Positions 32,653 to 39,219 of a stretch of 55,187 bases of DNA are shown here, one piece after another. The notes beneath the pieces were generated by a model that saw only the letters and a program-made list of their open reading frames with translations, was not told where the DNA came from and did not search any database. Position numbers and translations under genes: made by a program. How positions within the stretch are numbered: the first letter of the stretch is position 1; every line of letters begins with the position of its first letter. The DNA comes from Anaerolineae bacterium (GTDB taxonomy: Bacteria > Chloroflexota > Anaerolineae > Anaerolineales > UBA4823), in contig JBFYSP010000139.1 of the NCBI GenBank assembly GCA_041301395.1, positions 1-55,187 on the forward strand, given 5' to 3'.

Positions 32653-33444
32653 TCAGGTATTGACCTGCACCTGAACGGGATCGCCGACCCGGGCGCCCAG
32701 GCGGGCAGCAGCGCTACCGTTAACCTCGCAGACGATCAGGTTGCCGGTGCTGCCGAAGAGCGCTACCAGCTCGCCGGGGGGTCGCTCGCCAAAGGTGCGC
32801 ACCAATCCCTGCACGGTGACCCCTGCCAGGCGCACCGTGATGTTCTCGATGCCGGGTAGGTGCTCCAGGCGCAGGTTGGTGGCCAGGTTGCCGAAATGGT
32901 CAATGTGGATGATCTCGGCCTGCCAGCCGAGGGGGGTGCGCTGCGGCTGGGGCAATGCCAGGCGGTGCGGATCGGACAGCGGCGAGCCAAGATCGGCCAG
33001 CTGCATACCGGCAGCCAGGCGGCCGGCGACCGGCGAGAAGATATCCCGGCCGTGAAAGACCTGGCTGACTTCCGGCAGCCAGAATTGCGGGCGATCCAGA
33101 TGGACGAAGTCCACCGTCAGGCGGCGGGCTTGCACCCATTCCAGATACTGCGTAACCACGCCGTTATCCGGCCCGACAAAATACTGCTCGCCCAGGCGGG
33201 CGGCCAACGGGCGGCGATTCGTGCCCACCCCGGGGTCGACCACCACGAGGTGCACAGTGCCCGACGGGAAGTAAGGCGCCGAGCGAGCCAGGATCAGGGC
33301 GGCCTCGCGGATGTTCTGCGGCCCGATCAGATGACTGAGGTCTGCGATTTGCGCCTGGGGGGCAAAGCTCCAGATGACGCCCTTCATAACGCCTACATTG
33401 CCATCCTTCAGGCCAAAATCGGTCATTAAGGTTACAATGCTCAT
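32653..33444 (-). CDS. SAM hydrolase / SAM-dependent halogenase family protein (DUF62)
   Basis: MSIVTLMTDFGLKDGNVGVMKGVI...HLVVVDPGVGT. Start trimmed to ATG 33444. Confidence 0.85.
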   Translation of the reverse strand: MSIVTLMTDFGLKDGNVGVMKGVIWSFAPQAQIADLSHLIGPQNIREAALILARSAPYFPSGTVHLVVVDPGVGTNRRPLAARLGEQYFVGPDNGVVTQYLEWVQARRLTVDFVHLDRPQFWLPEVSQVFHGRDIFSPVAGRLAAGMQLADLGSPLSDPHRLALPQPQRTPLGWQAEIIHIDHFGNLATNLRLEHLPGIENITVRLAGVTVQGLVRTFGERPPGELVALFGSTGNLIVCEVNGSAAARLGARVGDPVQVQVNT

Positions 33445-33571
33445 CTGCTGCTCCTGGGGCGGCGGGGTTGTCTGGTAAAGTATATATAGCATGCTGGATG
33501 GTGGATGTCAATGATCGGTATCGGTATGATACAATTTTGACGCCTGACAACCGGTAACCATTCCGGCCCGG

Positions 33572-34204
33572 ATGCATCTAATGAATAACAGGAACACTCT
33601 CGCTGAAGATTTTTCACTCCCCGCCCTGCGCACCGGCGACCGGGCAGAGTTTGCCCGGCTGGTAGAGGCTTATTCCGGCTTTATCTACCGGCTGGGGCTG
33701 AAGCTGCTGGAAGACCCGCAGGATGCCGAGGATGTGCTGCAGGAGACCTTCCTGAAGGCCCACCGCGGGCTGGCGAATTTCGACGGGCGGTCGAGCCTGT
33801 CCACCTGGCTTTACCGCATCGCCACCAACGAAGCGCTGATGGTGATCCGCCGCCGCAAGGCTCCGGCTATCTCGCTCGAAGAGCCGCTGGAAGGCGACCT
33901 GGCAGAGCAGGAGCCGCTGGAAATCCTGGATTGGTGCTGCGCCCCGGAGGCGGAATTGATGTCCGGCGAGGCGCGCCGCATGCTGGACCAGGCGGTGGAT
34001 GCGCTGCCCGCCACATTGCGGGTGGTGTTCATCCTGCGAGATATTGAAGGGCTGTCGACCCTGGAAACCAGCCAGGTGCTCAACCTGAGCGAAGCCGCTG
34101 TCAAGACCCGGCTGTCACGCGCCCGCCTGCGCCTGCGGGAACAACTTACCGGTTATTTTGGCGAACGCCTGCGCCAACAAGAATTGGAAGAAGGATCCGA
34201 ATGA
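33572..34204 (+). CDS. ECF-type RNA polymerase sigma-70 factor
   Basis: Region 2 (DAEDVLQETFLKAHR...STWLYRIATNEA) and region 4 (LRDIEGLSTLETSQVLNLSEAAVKTRLSRAR). Confidence 0.9.
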   Translation: MHLMNNRNTLAEDFSLPALRTGDRAEFARLVEAYSGFIYRLGLKLLEDPQDAEDVLQETFLKAHRGLANFDGRSSLSTWLYRIATNEALMVIRRRKAPAISLEEPLEGDLAEQEPLEILDWCCAPEAELMSGEARRMLDQAVDALPATLRVVFILRDIEGLSTLETSQVLNLSEAAVKTRLSRARLRLREQLTGYFGERLRQQELEEGSE

Positions 34205-34461
34205 ACCACGCCGGCTGCCATGATTTACTAAGCTCCCTGTCCGAATACGTGGACGGGACGCTGGACGACAGTTTGTGCGCCGAGATCGAACGGCACATGT
34301 CCGGCTGCGACAACTGCCGGATCGTGATCGACACACTGCGCAAGACCATCGAGCTGTACCAGGTCACGGCCCTACCGCCCAACCTGCCGCAAGACGTCCA
34401 CAGCCGGCTTTTTCACCGACTGGCGCTGGACGAATTCATCGACCACTCTTCAGACGTGTAA
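34201..34461 (+). CDS. Zinc-binding anti-sigma factor (ZAS, HxxxCxxC)
   Basis: 4-nt overlap with the sigma gene. N-terminal Cys plus HMSGCDNC. Confidence 0.8.
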   Translation: MNHAGCHDLLSSLSEYVDGTLDDSLCAEIERHMSGCDNCRIVIDTLRKTIELYQVTALPPNLPQDVHSRLFHRLALDEFIDHSSDV

Positions 34462-34492
34462 CCTTTCCCCACAACCCGCATCTAAACCGATA

Positions 34493-34687
34493 ATGGCAGC
34501 CAAATCAGGCCCCCAGGCGCCTCCCCAAGCACCGTTCCCGGTGGGGCCGCTGCGCAATAAAGCATCCTCAGAGCCGCGCGTCGGAGACACCTGCCCGGTG
34601 TGTCGGGAAGGCCGGCTGGATTATGACGGCCTGTTGAACCTGGCGTGCACCCAGTGCGGCTACAGCCTGGCCGGCTGCTTTACCTGA
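34493..34687 (+). CDS. Hypothetical small zinc-ribbon protein (64 aa)
   Basis: CPVC...(15)...CTQC, with an additional C-terminal Cys (GCFT). No clear SD, and the N-terminal half is low-complexity. Confidence 0.4.
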   Translation: MAAKSGPQAPPQAPFPVGPLRNKASSEPRVGDTCPVCREGRLDYDGLLNLACTQCGYSLAGCFT

Positions 34688-34726
34688 TAACCAACCAATT
34701 TACCCCGGCGGGGTAAAGGAGATTCT

Positions 34727-35395
34727 ATGACCGAAAAAATGTTAAATGACGATATTACTCGCCAGGTGACCGAGTTCTTCCAACAGCTGCAGGAGCCGGT
34801 CGAAGTGCTGTATTTCGGCCGCAAGGACGACTGCGACTATTGCGACGATACTCGCCTTCTCCTGGAAGAGCTGGTGGAGACCTCCGATAAGCTGGCGCTC
34901 AATACCTACGACCTGGATGACGACGCCGGCCTGGCAGAGCAATACCGGGTTGACAAGGCACCCGGCATCGTGATTGCCGGGCGAGATGGCGACCAGATCC
35001 TGGATTACGGCATCCGCTATTCCGGCATCCCGGCCGGGTCCGAGTTCAGCTCGCTGATCAACACGATGGTGCTGGTCTCCAGCCGCGATTCAGGGTTGGA
35101 TCCACAGACGCGCCAGGTGCTGGCGGGGCTTAAGAAACCAGTCCACCTGCAGGTGTTCGTCACACCTACCTGACCATACTGCCCGCGAGCCGTGGTGCTC
35201 GCTCACCAGATGGCGCTGGAAAGCCCCATGATCGAAGCCGAGATGGTCGAGGCGATGGAGTTCCCCGAGCTGTCCAACCGCTTCCACGTCAGCGGGGTGC
35301 CGCAGACGACGATCAACGCTGGAGCCGGCACAGTGGTTGGTGCGGTGCCTGAAGACCAGCTGCTCAAGGAAATCCAGCGTGCGATTGCCAAGTAA
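34727..35395 (+). CDS. Two-domain protein disulfide oxidoreductase (PDO / glutaredoxin-like). Predicted selenoprotein with TGA at 35171-35173 read as Sec.
   Basis: ORFs 34727-35173 and 35192-35395 share one frame, and the only interruption is a single TGA. The joined protein (222 aa) has CDYC in domain 1 and VFVTPT-[TGA]-PYCPRAVVLAHQMALES in domain 2. This is the position of the first Cys of the CPYC motif in archaeal and thermophile PDOs. A SECIS-like hairpin follows. Confidence 0.8.
35174..35213 (+). promoter_or_regulatory. Bacterial SECIS-like stem-loop immediately 3' of the in-frame UGA
   Basis: Lower stem CCAU(A)CUG 35174-35181 pairs with CAGAUGG 35207-35213. After an internal loop, the upper stem GCGAGC 35185-35190 pairs with GCUCGC 35197-35202, with apical loop CGUGGU. 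The upper stem starts 11 nt after UGA, as in the E. coli fdhF minimal SECIS. Confidence 0.65.
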
Positions 35396-35957
35396 AAAAA
35401 AGCCGGGCCGCCAGGTCCTACCCTTAATCCTGATCGGGATAGGCCTGGTCGCCCTGGGCATCGCATCCTTCTTGCTTCTGCCTAAGCCGGGACAGGGCAG
35501 CCAGGCCAGCGAGGAGGCGGTTTACGCCATCCCGGTGGTGGTGGATTTCCCGGCGCCGCAGATTGAGCTGCGCGACCTGGAAAACCAGCCGGTAGCCTTA
35601 TCCGACTATGCGGGCAAGGTCGTCCTGGTCAACAACTGGGCAACCTGGTGCCCGCCGTGCAAGGCCGAGATGCCCACCCTGGAAGCCTATTTCAACGACT
35701 ACCAGGCGCAGGATTTTGTGATCGTGGCGATTGAAGCCGGCGAGCCGGCAGAAGAAGTGGCCACCTTCGCCCGCGAGTATCGCCTGTCTTTCCCGGTGTG
35801 GCCCGATCCCGACTTTGTCTCTCAGACCAGCTTCAAGAATGATGCGCTACCCAGCTCGTATGTCATCGACCGCCAGGGGCAGGTCCGGCTGGCATGGGTA
35901 GGCCCGATCAACCGGGAGCTCTTAGAGCAATACGTTACCCCTTTATTGGAGGAATAA
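35379..35957 (+). CDS. TlpA/ResA-family membrane-anchored thiol:disulfide oxidoreductase
   Basis: WATWCPPCKAEMP active site and an N-terminal basic-plus-TM anchor. GTG 35379 has AAGGA 7 nt upstream. The ORF-track ATG 35337 would overlap the PDO gene by 59 nt. Confidence 0.8.
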   Translation: MRLPSKKKPGRQVLPLILIGIGLVALGIASFLLLPKPGQGSQASEEAVYAIPVVVDFPAPQIELRDLENQPVALSDYAGKVVLVNNWATWCPPCKAEMPTLEAYFNDYQAQDFVIVAIEAGEPAEEVATFAREYRLSFPVWPDPDFVSQTSFKNDALPSSYVIDRQGQVRLAWVGPINRELLEQYVTPLLEE

Positions 35958-35959
35958 TT

Positions 35960-36442
35960 ATGGAAGCAATGGTCAATTGGCAAGGCGGGTTAGCCTTCGA
36001 CGGCAAAGCCGACACCGGATTCCAGATCCGCCTGGATGCGGCTGCAAGCGCAGGCGGGGAGAACAGCGGGTTCCGCCCGATGGAACTGCTGGCGATAGGC
36101 CTGGCCGGCTGCACAGCCATGGACGTGATCTCGATTTTGCAGAAAAAACGCCAGGAGGTGACCGGATTTCAGGTGCTGGCGCATATGGAACGGCGTGAAG
36201 CTCACCCCAAGATGTTCAACCATGCTGTACTGGAATACCTGATCAGCGGGCACAGCATCGATGAAGCCGCGGTGGTGCGCTCGATCGAGCTCTCCGCCAC
36301 AACCTACTGTTCGGCACAGGCAATGTTTGCTCAGATCATGCCGATCGAGCTGCGCTTCAGCATCTTTGAAGACCTGGGAGATGGGCGTCAGGAGCTGGTC
36401 ACCAGCGGCAGCTACACCCTGCCCGAAAAGACAGCCGCATGA
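35960..36442 (+). CDS. OsmC/Ohr-family peroxiredoxin-like protein
   Basis: GGAGG lies 7 nt upstream of ATG 35960. GFRPMELLAIGLAGCTAMDV and TYCSAQAMF supply the two conserved Cys residues. Confidence 0.85.
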   Translation: MEAMVNWQGGLAFDGKADTGFQIRLDAAASAGGENSGFRPMELLAIGLAGCTAMDVISILQKKRQEVTGFQVLAHMERREAHPKMFNHAVLEYLISGHSIDEAAVVRSIELSATTYCSAQAMFAQIMPIELRFSIFEDLGDGRQELVTSGSYTLPEKTAA

Positions 36443-36792
36443 GCTTGAAACGTTTCTGGTGGCTGCCTACCGGCAAAGCACAGGAGATTGAGCCGCAGGA
36501 ATTTTTTGACTGGCTGCAGTATGGGAAAGCAGTACAAGTGGTTGACGCCCGCACGGCGTTAGAATACCAGCAGGGTACCATCCACCACGCGCAGCACGCC
36601 CCGCTGACCGAGATGCCGGGATCCATGGAAAAGCTGGCGCTCGATTCTGAGAAAGCGATTGTGGTATTGTGCCTGACCGGTCATCGCAGCCTGCCGGGAA
36701 CGCGCTGGCTACGGGCCAGAGGCTACCAGGCATACAGCCTGAGAGGCGGCATCACCGCCTGGAGACGGGCCGGCTTCCAACTCAATAAATAA
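36439..36792 (+). CDS. Rhodanese-domain sulfurtransferase
   Basis: Active-site loop VVLCLTGHRS. 4-nt overlap with the OsmC gene. Confidence 0.8.
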   Translation: MSLKRFWWLPTGKAQEIEPQEFFDWLQYGKAVQVVDARTALEYQQGTIHHAQHAPLTEMPGSMEKLALDSEKAIVVLCLTGHRSLPGTRWLRARGYQAYSLRGGITAWRRAGFQLNK

Positions 36793-36802
36793 ATCGTCCT
36801 GT

Positions 36803-36820
36803 GCCTGGCGCTTGCCGGGC
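36803..36820. terminator. Possible bidirectional hairpin between convergent genes
   Basis: GCCUGGC-gcuu-GCCGGGC, 7 bp including one G-U pair. No U-tract. Confidence 0.3.
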
Positions 36821-36827
36821 AAAGGTG

Positions 36828-37202
36828 CTATTCGATAAAGATCTCGACATGCTCGCCATCTTCTTCGTCGAGCACATCGATAATCTTGCCTTCGGCGCCT
36901 TCATTGATCGCCTTGACCAGCTCTTCGAAGTTCACACCGGGGGCGTATTGTGAGGCGATGTTCAGTCCGGCGTCCACCAGGCCGATGGGCAGATTGACGG
37001 TGGCTTTGGCTTTCCCGGTGACCATATCGGTCACGCGCACGCGCAGCCAGCGCGCGCCCCCTGCCCGCAGCGAACCGGTTGGTTTACGCGCCGTCTTGCG
37101 GCTATCACCCAAGGCGGCCAGTAATTTAGCACCTTCCTCGGCGCTGATTTTGCCTTCATCGATCATCTTTAAAATCTTCAGGCGCTCTTCACTCGTGACC
37201 AT
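36828..37202 (-). CDS. Small protein with an N-terminal SHOCT-like helix (YvlB/LiaX-N-like)
   Basis: MVTSEERLKILKMIDEGKISAEEGAKLLAAL. GGAG lies 7 nt upstream of ATG 37202. Confidence 0.7.
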   Translation of the reverse strand: MVTSEERLKILKMIDEGKISAEEGAKLLAALGDSRKTARKPTGSLRAGGARWLRVRVTDMVTGKAKATVNLPIGLVDAGLNIASQYAPGVNFEELVKAINEGAEGKIIDVLDEEDGEHVEIFIE

Positions 37203-37220
37203 CACGCTTCTCCTCGTGAG

Positions 37221-37886
37221 TTATCCAATATAAATCTGTACCTTCTCGCCATTGCCCTCATCCACTTCGACGTAAAGCGGGTTCTCGGGGCTGGTGTTGC
37301 TGCCTACGGCAGCCAGCATGCCTTCCACGTCAATTTCCTCCATACCCTTAATGTGGCCTCGGAAGATGCGTAAAATCCAGCCGGCAAACTGCAGGGGCAG
37401 GGGAAAGCTGATCGAGATGCGCTGCGGAGTCTCGCCCGGCCGCTGCTGTATTCGCAGGTGCAGCCAGCGGGCGGTGCGCGAGCCCCAGCCAATCACAATC
37501 AGCAAGACTCCCAGGGCGAACGGCAGACTGACGCACAGCATCCAGAAAACCGAACCCGCCGCGGCGGCCTGGGACATCAGGTAGGCAAACAAGATGGTAA
37601 ACCCAATCCCCACCCACATGGGGATGGCCCACAGGCTGCGCCAGCGGGAAAAATCCGGCGGGGGAGGCTGCATGGCGCCGGATTCCGGCATATCGGCCGG
37701 CGGGAGGGCGGCAGCCCCCGGGAAGCGCTCCGCTAAGAACTCTTCATCCTGCTCCAGGATACCTTCTTTTACATCCTGATCGGCGCTGTTCAGATCTTGC
37801 AGGCGCTGCCAGCCTTCCTCGGCGCTGATCTCGCCACGCTCAATCATTTCCAGGATGTATAAGCGTTCGTTCGGCTGTTCGGTCAT
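37221..37886 (-). CDS. Membrane protein with an N-terminal SHOCT-like helix
   Basis: MTEQPNERLYILEMIERGEISAEEGWQRLQDL, followed by 2-3 TM segments. ATG 37886 lies 1 nt after the upstream stop. Confidence 0.7.
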   Translation of the reverse strand: MTEQPNERLYILEMIERGEISAEEGWQRLQDLNSADQDVKEGILEQDEEFLAERFPGAAALPPADMPESGAMQPPPPDFSRWRSLWAIPMWVGIGFTILFAYLMSQAAAAGSVFWMLCVSLPFALGVLLIVIGWGSRTARWLHLRIQQRPGETPQRISISFPLPLQFAGWILRIFRGHIKGMEEIDVEGMLAAVGSNTSPENPLYVEVDEGNGEKVQIYIG

Positions 37887-37887
37887 C

Positions 37888-39219
37888 TCAGGCTGATCCT
37901 TCACGAGATTCCAAGGCCGCCAGGAGCTGCTCGGCCTCGGCAATGCTGATCTTTTTCTGCTCCAGCATGCGCAGGATCATCAGGCGCTCTTCCTCGGAGA
38001 CCGGGTCGGGAGCCGGGGCCGTAGCCGATTGAGCCTGCGAGCTGCCAAAGCCTTCGAACCCCCAGCCCCGACGAGGACCGGTCACGCCAGGAGGCGAGGG
38101 TGGCCTCGGCGGCATAGGTGGCATGGGCGGGCGGCCGCGCAGGGACTCGCGCTGCTGGCGGTACTCCACTTTGCGCTGCATCTTTTCCTGGGTGCGCTCG
38201 ATCTTTTCTTGCGCCTTGCGCATTTTTTCCTGGGCGCGCTCCTGGGCGCGCTCGTTGGAGCGGCGCGCCTGCTCTACGATGCGCTCGACCTGGGCATCGG
38301 GCATGCCCGCCCGCCCCAGGTCAGCCGTCAGGCGCTCCATCTGCTCGTTCAGCTGGCGAGTCATAGCTTCCATCTGGGCAGCCACCTGCACTTCCACCTG
38401 GCGGGAAATATCTTCTGAGAGGCGGGTAAAATCTGCTTCTGTGTCGGCATCCCACTCGGCCTGTGCCGTCCATTCCGGCTGCTGGCTGGAAAGATAAATA
38501 TGCCCGCCGGCATGTGCGCTCAGCGATGACTGGCCTTCCCCCAGGAGCAACTCAGTGCTTTCATTGTAGACGGATTTCTCCTGGCCGGGGAACTTGACCT
38601 TGATCTGCCCCTCACTGGTCAGCGACAGGCGGGCGCTGGCATCCACGGGAAGCTCCAGGTAGAGGTTGCCGGCTGCCCGAATTTCATAAGTTTCGCCGGT
38701 CATCTGCTCCAGGCTAAGGCGCAGGTTGCCTTCAGCTTTCGAACGGAATTCTCCGGAGATCCCCCGCGCCTCCACGTTGCCGTCCACCCGCTCCAGGGTT
38801 GCGTCGCCCTGCACACTGCGCAGGTAGGCGTTGCCGCGAACATGCCCGGCAGTGAGCGCCCCATTGATTTCGCGGGCAGACATCTCGCCATAGACGCTCT
38901 CGATAACAGCACTGGCCACCTCGCGCAACGCCAGCGATCCGTAGACCTGCCCAATCTGCAGCGGTTCCTCCAGCCGGCGCAAGCGCGCCTGCCCATGCAC
39001 TAACTGGATGTGCATATCAGCACCAAATGGGACGCGCATTTCCAGGCTGCCGGTGCAGCGTAGGCTCAGCCGGCCATCGGCTTCCTGATAATTCAGTGAA
39101 TCCGGGCTGGCGCGCAGCTCAACCTCGGCCTGATCCCAGCCTTTGACATCCAGGTTGCCATCTACCTGCTCCACAATAATTTCCGGCGTGCTGCCGGTCT
39201 CGATACGCTTCTCTGTCAT
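37888..39219 (-). CDS. DUF4097/YvlB-like beta-rich protein with a coiled coil, a Pro-rich linker and a C-terminal SHOCT-like helix
   Basis: Repetitive beta-strand N-terminal half (GNLDVKGW..., GNAYLRSVQGDATLERVDGNVEARGISG...). Charged coiled coil (AQERAQEKMRKAQEKIERTQEKMQRK). C-terminal EEERLMILRMLEQKKISIAEAEQLLAAL. Strong SD (GGAGGTGGAGG). Confidence 0.7.
   Translation of the reverse strand: MTEKRIETGSTPEIIVEQVDGNLDVKGWDQAEVELRASPDSLNYQEADGRLSLRCTGSLEMRVPFGADMHIQLVHGQARLRRLEEPLQIGQVYGSLALREVASAVIESVYGEMSAREINGALTAGHVRGNAYLRSVQGDATLERVDGNVEARGISGEFRSKAEGNLRLSLEQMTGETYEIRAAGNLYLELPVDASARLSLTSEGQIKVKFPGQEKSVYNESTELLLGEGQSSLSAHAGGHIYLSSQQPEWTAQAEWDADTEADFTRLSEDISRQVEVQVAAQMEAMTRQLNEQMERLTADLGRAGMPDAQVERIVEQARRSNERAQERAQEKMRKAQEKIERTQEKMQRKVEYRQQRESLRGRPPMPPMPPRPPSPPGVTGPRRGWGFEGFGSSQAQSATAPAPDPVSEEERLMILRMLEQKKISIAEAEQLLAALESREGSA

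Follow-up and report, generated by a model that had tools for sequence, protein, structure and literature searches.

An in-frame UGA as a probable selenocysteine codon in a protein disulfide oxidoreductase gene of Anaerolineae

UxxC selenoproteins of the TIGR02187 family, with selenocysteine (Sec, U) in a redox motif, were predicted in 2006 by Zhang et al. in Carboxydothermus hydrogenoformans (ABB15282.1) and Symbiobacterium thermophilum (PMC1794560). In a 2026 review, which includes members from Asgard archaea, the entry for the family reads "TIGR02187, UxxC, predicted with high confidence" (PMC13188914), and the name of the NCBIfam model itself contains "seleno". Considered here is a candidate member from an Anaerolineae bacterium (Chloroflexota), found on contig JBFYSP010000139.1 of GenBank assembly GCA_041301395.1; the window below is this whole stretch of 55,187 nucleotides. 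The gene, at 34727-35398 on the forward strand, would encode a protein disulfide oxidoreductase (PDO) of two thioredoxin folds, and is interrupted by an in-frame UGA at 35171-35173. Judged from sequence comparisons, this UGA very probably encodes Sec, and the two fragments annotated at the locus very probably make up one real selenoprotein gene (probability roughly 0.93).

The interrupted gene and its orthologs

The frame opens with ATG at 34727, preceded by a Shine-Dalgarno sequence (AAGGAG, 34716-34721) with a 5-nt gap, and runs for 148 codons to the TGA; it continues for 73 more to a TAA at 35396-35398, for a total of 222 sense codons (148 + Sec + 73). The original prediction was that open reading frames (ORFs) at 34727-35173 (148 aa) and 35192-35395 share a frame with this TGA as the sole intervening stop, and the sequence confirms it. 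The read-through product is ...KKPVHLQVFVTPT-[UGA]-PYCPRAVVLAHQMALE..., where UGA is residue 149 and the first of U-P-Y-C (35171-35182). The first domain has, as was also claimed, a normal CDYC motif (Cys36-Asp-Tyr-Cys39, 34832-34843, forward strand); an N-terminal CxxC is present in all 81 genes compared (the window gene and the 80 orthologs described below), in most of them as CDYC or CEYC. The window was also scanned for further in-frame TGAs flanked on either side by an open frame; besides 35171, only adjacent same-frame genes or antisense shadows were found, and no second selenoprotein candidate.

The joined 222-residue product was assigned with hidden Markov models after substituting Cys at the TGA. 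It scores 276.2 bits on the NCBIfam equivalog model TIGR02187 "PDO_seleno_TRX" (cutoff 185), in an alignment that spans positions 2-208 of the 209 in the model, and has a Pfam Thioredoxin_3 match at residues 140-216. The Pyrococcus furiosus PDO 1A8L aligns with residues 15-219 (E = 5e-45), with the UGA opposite the first Cys of VFVTPT-C-PYCP in its C-terminal redox centre, which is where an alignment to PDO homologs had been expected to place a Cys. Five solved PDO structures (1A8L, 1J08, 2YWM, 2AYT, and 2HLS), each with two tandem thioredoxin-fold units, align full-length at E = 5e-45 to 1e-33, while matches to the AhpF N-terminal domain are weaker. By these matches the predicted product is a two-thioredoxin-fold PDO with a C-terminal CPYC-type centre.

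The TGA might be an error of sequencing or assembly in place of a real TGC or TGT, and a 92%-identical homolog (P0001, locus L087) does have TGT here, with identical sequence downstream. However, four contigs examined (two from NCBI metagenome-assembled genomes, MAGs, and two from JGI metagenomes), which are independent assemblies from different samples, all carry the identical gene with TGA, and 34 diverged orthologs have TGA as well. Given the identical TGA gene in four independent assemblies, sequencing error can be regarded as practically excluded. In all, 11 contigs are recorded with exactly this 148-aa N-terminal product, the four examined among them.

Orthologs were collected by a scan with one genome per species, which returned 80 loci, all from Anaerolineae/Chloroflexota. 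The codon at the UGA site is TGA in 34 of these and TGC or TGT in 46, and is TAA or TAG in none; with the window gene added, there are 35 TGA genes to compare with 46 Cys genes. A UGA opposite the first Cys of the C-terminal CxxC and the existence of Cys-containing homologs characterize the TIGR02187 selenoprotein subfamily (UxxC), and both are found here. TGA-type and Cys-type genes are intermixed in a neighbour-joining tree, which points to repeated interconversion between Sec and Cys.

A pseudogene, in which a nonsense change had inactivated the gene at the codon for the active-site Cys, would be expected to have a decaying downstream frame. It would account for the two fragments given by gene callers, and the Sec machinery was not found in the window (see below). 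However, truncated relatives with decayed 3' sequence, which would have spoken for it, were not seen: TGA occurs in 34 other species, and the frame past it is open in every TGA gene, for 72-83 codons, giving lengths like those of Cys-type genes. The ratio of nonsynonymous to synonymous substitution rates (dN/dS; Nei-Gojobori, hairpin region excluded) in this downstream part is 0.116 in TGA genes vs. 0.107 in Cys genes, and in the upstream half it is 0.17 in both groups. The equal downstream ratios indicate that the segment after the UGA is translated and under selection as in ordinary genes. Together with the complete lack of TAA and TAG at the UGA site and the conserved hairpin found specifically beside TGA (next section), this leaves a pseudogene with a very small probability, and the selection analysis by itself effectively refutes it.

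The locus might also yield two polypeptides, namely the 148-aa N-terminal domain and a separate thioredoxin-like protein of 66-67 aa starting at GTG 35192 or 35195. Public annotation reads it this way: as anticipated for standard gene callers, the MAG annotation has a 148-aa orphan and a "Thioredoxin_3" piece of ~66 aa. Some termination at UGA probably also competes with Sec insertion in vivo. Against this, the C-terminal piece would start past the PYC and so be without a redox centre, no Shine-Dalgarno sequence precedes 35192, and the Cys-type orthologs are single proteins of 220-227 aa. The P-Y-C-P codons, located after the UGA but ahead of the first start that could be used internally, are conserved in 35 of 35 TGA genes, and this would be unexplained if they were untranslated. 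Two separate products are given only a slight chance.

Finally, the UGA could be read through without Sec, by near-cognate insertion of Trp or Cys or under a reassigned code, and for this it counts that the part of the genome searched, the 55-kb window, gave no Sec machinery. TGA is, however, the commonest ordinary stop in the window, ending 21 of 40 long ORFs, and 13 of the 35 TGA-type PDO genes themselves end in it, so the genetic code is taken to be standard. The site is that of an invariant catalytic Cys, and an enzyme with Trp in its place would be inactive; the adjacent hairpin is conserved with the geometry of a bacterial Sec insertion sequence (SECIS); and selA is found near the PDO gene in two TGA-type relatives. 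Read-through of this kind is extremely improbable.

A hairpin beside the UGA

Immediately past the UGA, the original prediction placed a 40-nt stem-loop (35174-35213) of the E. coli fdhF type. Its upper part is here considered to be the core of a probable bacterial SECIS (35185-35202, forward strand). As had been described, a 6-bp stem (35185-35190/35197-35202, GCGAGC/GCUCGC) starts after an 11-nt spacer and closes a loop containing G and U (CGUGGU, 35191-35196), with 17 nt from UGA to loop. This core overlaps the codons for Arg-Ala-Val-Val-Leu-Ala. The consensus for bacterial SECIS elements (PMC13188914) has a loop of 3-9 nt, a stem of 4-16 bp, a UGA-loop spacing of 16-37 nt, a minimum free energy of -7.5 kcal/mol or lower, and a G as the first or second loop nucleotide, with G or U as its usual 3' neighbour. 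The window element agrees with it at every point (6-nt loop reading C-G-U-G-G-U, 6-bp stem, 17 nt, -9.1 kcal/mol for the upper hairpin). The geometry is found in 35 of 35 TGA genes, 26 of which also pass the energy cutoff for the isolated hairpin, while only 4 of 46 Cys genes pass on all points.

The association of the upper stem with TGA is strong. All six pairs form in 32 of 35 TGA genes vs. one of 46 Cys genes (Fisher p = 6e-18), and over all stem cells 97.5% are paired in the former and 57.2% in the latter. When TGA genes were matched with their nearest Cys neighbours in 35 disjoint pairs, the TGA member was the better paired in 33 and the worse in one (sign test p = 4e-9). Pair 17-30 covaries among the TGA genes, as GC in 23, AU in seven, and CG in one; the change from G-C to A-U involves an Arg-to-Gln replacement (CGA to CAA) on one arm and a synonymous CUC to CUU on the other. 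Loop residues C21, G22, U23, and G24 are invariant across all TGA genes. Third codon positions from +15 to +27 have an entropy of 1.7-1.9 bits in Cys genes but of only 0-0.56 bits in those with TGA, whereas synonymous sites outside the hairpin (+6, +36, +39, and +57) are equally variable in both groups. Because the low entropy is confined to the hairpin, the constraint is local, at the RNA level, and linked to the UGA, rather than a result of closer kinship among the TGA genes.

The 40-nt structure folds as originally drawn, and its upper stem is specific to TGA genes, but the same is not true of its lower stem (35174-35181/35207-35213), which forms equally well without a UGA (82.7% of cells paired in TGA genes vs. 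85.4% in Cys genes). The lower stem was accordingly rejected as part of the SECIS; with pairing so similar in the two groups, it is a coding by-product of the conserved P-Y-C and Q-M-A codons. Folding energies are -16.8 kcal/mol for a 50-nt segment and -15.7 for the 40 nt alone.

Several points weigh against the UGA being a Sec codon. Taken as a single sequence, this GC-rich segment gains no stability over its dinucleotide shuffles (z = -0.44, with 57 of 200 folding as well), so that the significance of the hairpin comes from the comparative data only. In 9 of the 35 TGA genes, the isolated upper hairpin is weaker than -7.5 kcal/mol. No Rfam SECIS model matched, either in the whole window at the gathering threshold or in 35100-35300 at E <= 10, where only chance matches appeared (a Fluoride riboswitch at 10.6 bits and one lncRNA). 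The genes selA, selB, and selD and a tRNA-Sec were not found in the 55-kb window, to which the search in this genome was limited (tblastn with E. coli SelA, SelB, and SelD, NCBIfam scans of 27 ORFs, and ARAGORN). Lastly, the TIGR02187 UxxC family as a whole stands as "predicted with high confidence" (PMC13188914), and selenium incorporation is a prediction for every one of its members.

Overall, the claim of the original prediction that Sec is the nucleophile of the CPYC centre in the second domain is supported by the family match, the Sec/Cys-paired homologs, the dN/dS values, the TGA-specific hairpin, and the recurrence of the TGA in independent assemblies with split gene calls. The UGA at 35171 would then be decoded by Sec-tRNA(Sec), delivered by a SelB molecule presumably tethered to the mRNA hairpin at 35185-35202. 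The attacking residue of the C-terminal centre (U-P-Y-C) would be Sec, and the enzyme may cycle between a selenolate/thiol form and a selenenylsulfide of Sec with Cys152, reducing or reshuffling disulfides.

Sec machinery, gene neighbourhood, and Sec/Cys exchange

Outside the window, selA was the only Sec machinery gene found. In 21 of the 80 Anaerolineae loci (L037, L040, L048, L052, L053, L056, L058, L061, L064, and L067-L078), including those of Anaerolinea thermolimosa, Ornatilinea apprima, and Longilinea arvoryzae, the PDO cluster is preceded at a distance of 3.5-5 kb by a full-length copy in the same orientation. Two of these loci have a TGA-type PDO (L058 and L074) and 19 a Cys-type one. 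The linked SelA proteins are 40-47% identical to that of E. coli, and the L058 gene (878-2230) scores 549 bits on TIGR00474 (cutoff 268). In L058, the sole linked locus that was annotated, selA is separated from the cluster by a peptidase gene and tsaD, which suggests synteny rather than an operon. The presence of selA in 21 of 80 loci suggests that the Sec machinery is present in the lineage. SelB and SelD gave no tblastn match (E. coli queries) in the window or the 80 loci, and ARAGORN found no tRNA genes at all in the window and no tRNA-Sec in the window, the 34 TGA loci, or the 21 selA-linked loci. Two larger pieces of related sequence can be mentioned: 20 kb of the window is 99.98% identical to JBFYST010000173.1 (58.8 kb; L083), from MAG GCA_041301155.1, and a 96%-identical PDO is found on a 500-kb contig of MAG MFD03899.bin.2.126.

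The PDO gene is part of a cluster of same-strand genes that are tightly spaced or overlapping, with no terminator-like sites found across 33400-37300. The first gene (33572-34204) encodes an extracytoplasmic function (ECF) sigma-70 family sigma factor (TIGR02937, 110 bits), and the next (34201-34461) an 86-aa anti-sigma factor of the zf-HC2/ZAS type (PF13490); each is found upstream of the PDO in 74 of 80 loci. The anti-sigma factor is weakly RsrA-like, falling below the cutoff on the RsrA model (TIGR03988, E = 4e-7, 30 bits, cutoff 62.5). Its Cys6 ... His32-x3-Cys36-x2-Cys39 pattern has the spacing of the zinc ligands of Streptomyces RsrA (C11, H37, C41, C44). Directly upstream of the PDO, here and in 65 of 80 loci, is a gene for a Cys-rich, zinc-ribbon-like protein of 64 aa (34493-34687) with two CxxC pairs (CPVC ... 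CTQC), whose only family match is a weak one, to the zinc ribbon at the C terminus of class II ribonucleotide reductase. Downstream are genes for a ResA/TlpA-like thiol-disulfide oxidoreductase with a WCPPC motif (35379-35957, with its start from the public gene call and overlapping the PDO 3' end; 41 of 80 loci), an OsmC-family peroxiredoxin-like protein (35960-36442; 77 of 80), and a single-domain rhodanese (36439-36792; 15 of 80), the last same-strand gene of the cluster. These last three (35379-36792) have weak matches to NCBIfam seleno-variant models (WAxxUGC ResA-like, OsmC-related (seleno)protein, and rhodanese-related (seleno)protein), and all three are Cys forms here. Beyond them, on the reverse strand (36828-39219), is a run of three to four genes to which public Pfam calls assign SHOCT-like DUF2089-C domains and a zinc ribbon of DUF2089; no more than about 16-25 of the 80 loci have this run next to the cluster.

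SigR-RsrA is the thiol-oxidative-stress switch of actinomycetes, and the resemblance of the cluster to this arrangement suggests that the PDO may be an effector in disulfide stress. Its expression in a thiol/disulfide-stress response, presumably under the control of the sigma/anti-sigma pair, is likewise suggested by the layout of the cluster.

Among Cys-type relatives, P0001 on L087 (ENA contig k141_2216622) is the closest, with 92% protein and 89.6% nucleotide identity. Over the 60 nt from the UGA codon (L087:515-574), its only difference from the window is the base that turns TGA into TGT, and the hairpin is identical. This is most simply read as a fossil SECIS left by a very recent Sec-to-Cys replacement. 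L005, also with TGT, keeps a hairpin with six of six pairs as well. Remnant SECIS elements (Zhang et al., Figure 4) and dynamic exchange of Sec and Cys were already described in 2006 (PMC1794560). The 35 predicted Sec and 46 Cys orthologs clearly show both the constraint placed on synonymous sites by a SECIS embedded in coding sequence and the persistence of the SECIS after a switch from Sec to Cys. More tentatively, and with the odds somewhat against it, the Anaerolineae PDO could be a selenium-dependent effector of a conserved disulfide-stress operon controlled by an ECF sigma factor and ZAS protein, and its locus an unusually active site of interconversion between Sec and Cys. If so, it would offer a natural series of matched Sec and Cys enzymes and of SECIS decay states, in which to look for why Sec is retained or lost.

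Comparison with described systems

The PDOs of Pyrococcus furiosus (1A8L), P. horikoshii (1J08), Aquifex aeolicus (2AYT/2YWM), and Aeropyrum pernix (2HLS) are like the predicted product in having an N-terminal CxxC and a C-terminal xPYC within a VFVTPT-CPYCP context. They differ in that their attacking residue is Cys where the window gene has UGA, presumably for Sec; identity to them is moderate, with the fold predicted from sequence.

The fdhF-type geometry claimed for the hairpin holds in part. The SECIS of E. coli fdhF (NC_000913) shares with it the 11-nt spacer, an upper stem-loop of 17-18 nt, and a G-U in the loop (G23U24 in fdhF, G22U23 here). However, the fdhF stem has an unpaired, bulged U (U17), whereas the window stem (GCGAGC/GCUCGC) is perfectly paired; the apical loop is AGGUCU/GGUC in fdhF and CGUGGU here; and the lower stem of the window element is without SECIS-specific constraint. 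The element thus fits the general bacterial SECIS consensus better than the fdhF subtype.

As in the SigR-RsrA system, an ECF sigma factor gene is followed by one for a small soluble zf-HC2 anti-sigma factor (H-x3-C-x2-C), with thiol-redox genes adjacent. The window anti-sigma factor differs in falling short of the RsrA cutoff, and conserved adjacency is what points to regulation of the PDO by this pair.

Since the TIGR02187 family is already listed among selenoprotein families, the present result counts as a sound correction of annotation rather than a discovery, and current understanding is not overturned. What is added is a member from Anaerolineae whose gene is split in public annotation, with a Sec form that appears to be common in the class, and an unusually clean demonstration of a SECIS specific to the TGA genes. 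The family would thereby be extended into a phylum with few selenoproteins recorded in the papers cited, and the gene placed in a conserved thiol-stress cluster. The same mis-split is likely in dozens of Anaerolineae genomes; corrected annotation would restore a complete redox enzyme and flag these organisms as selenium users. Like the TIGR02187 selenoproteins predicted earlier, the window gene scores above the curated cutoff of the same model and has a UxxC motif in its C-terminal centre, with one predicted Sec as the first residue, along with Sec/Cys-paired homologs (PMC1794560, PMC13188914). It differs in its host, as Anaerolineae (Chloroflexota) are not named for the family in either of these papers, and in that the probable Sec form is widespread in this class (34 of the 80 species sampled) and seems to have been repeatedly interchanged with Cys.

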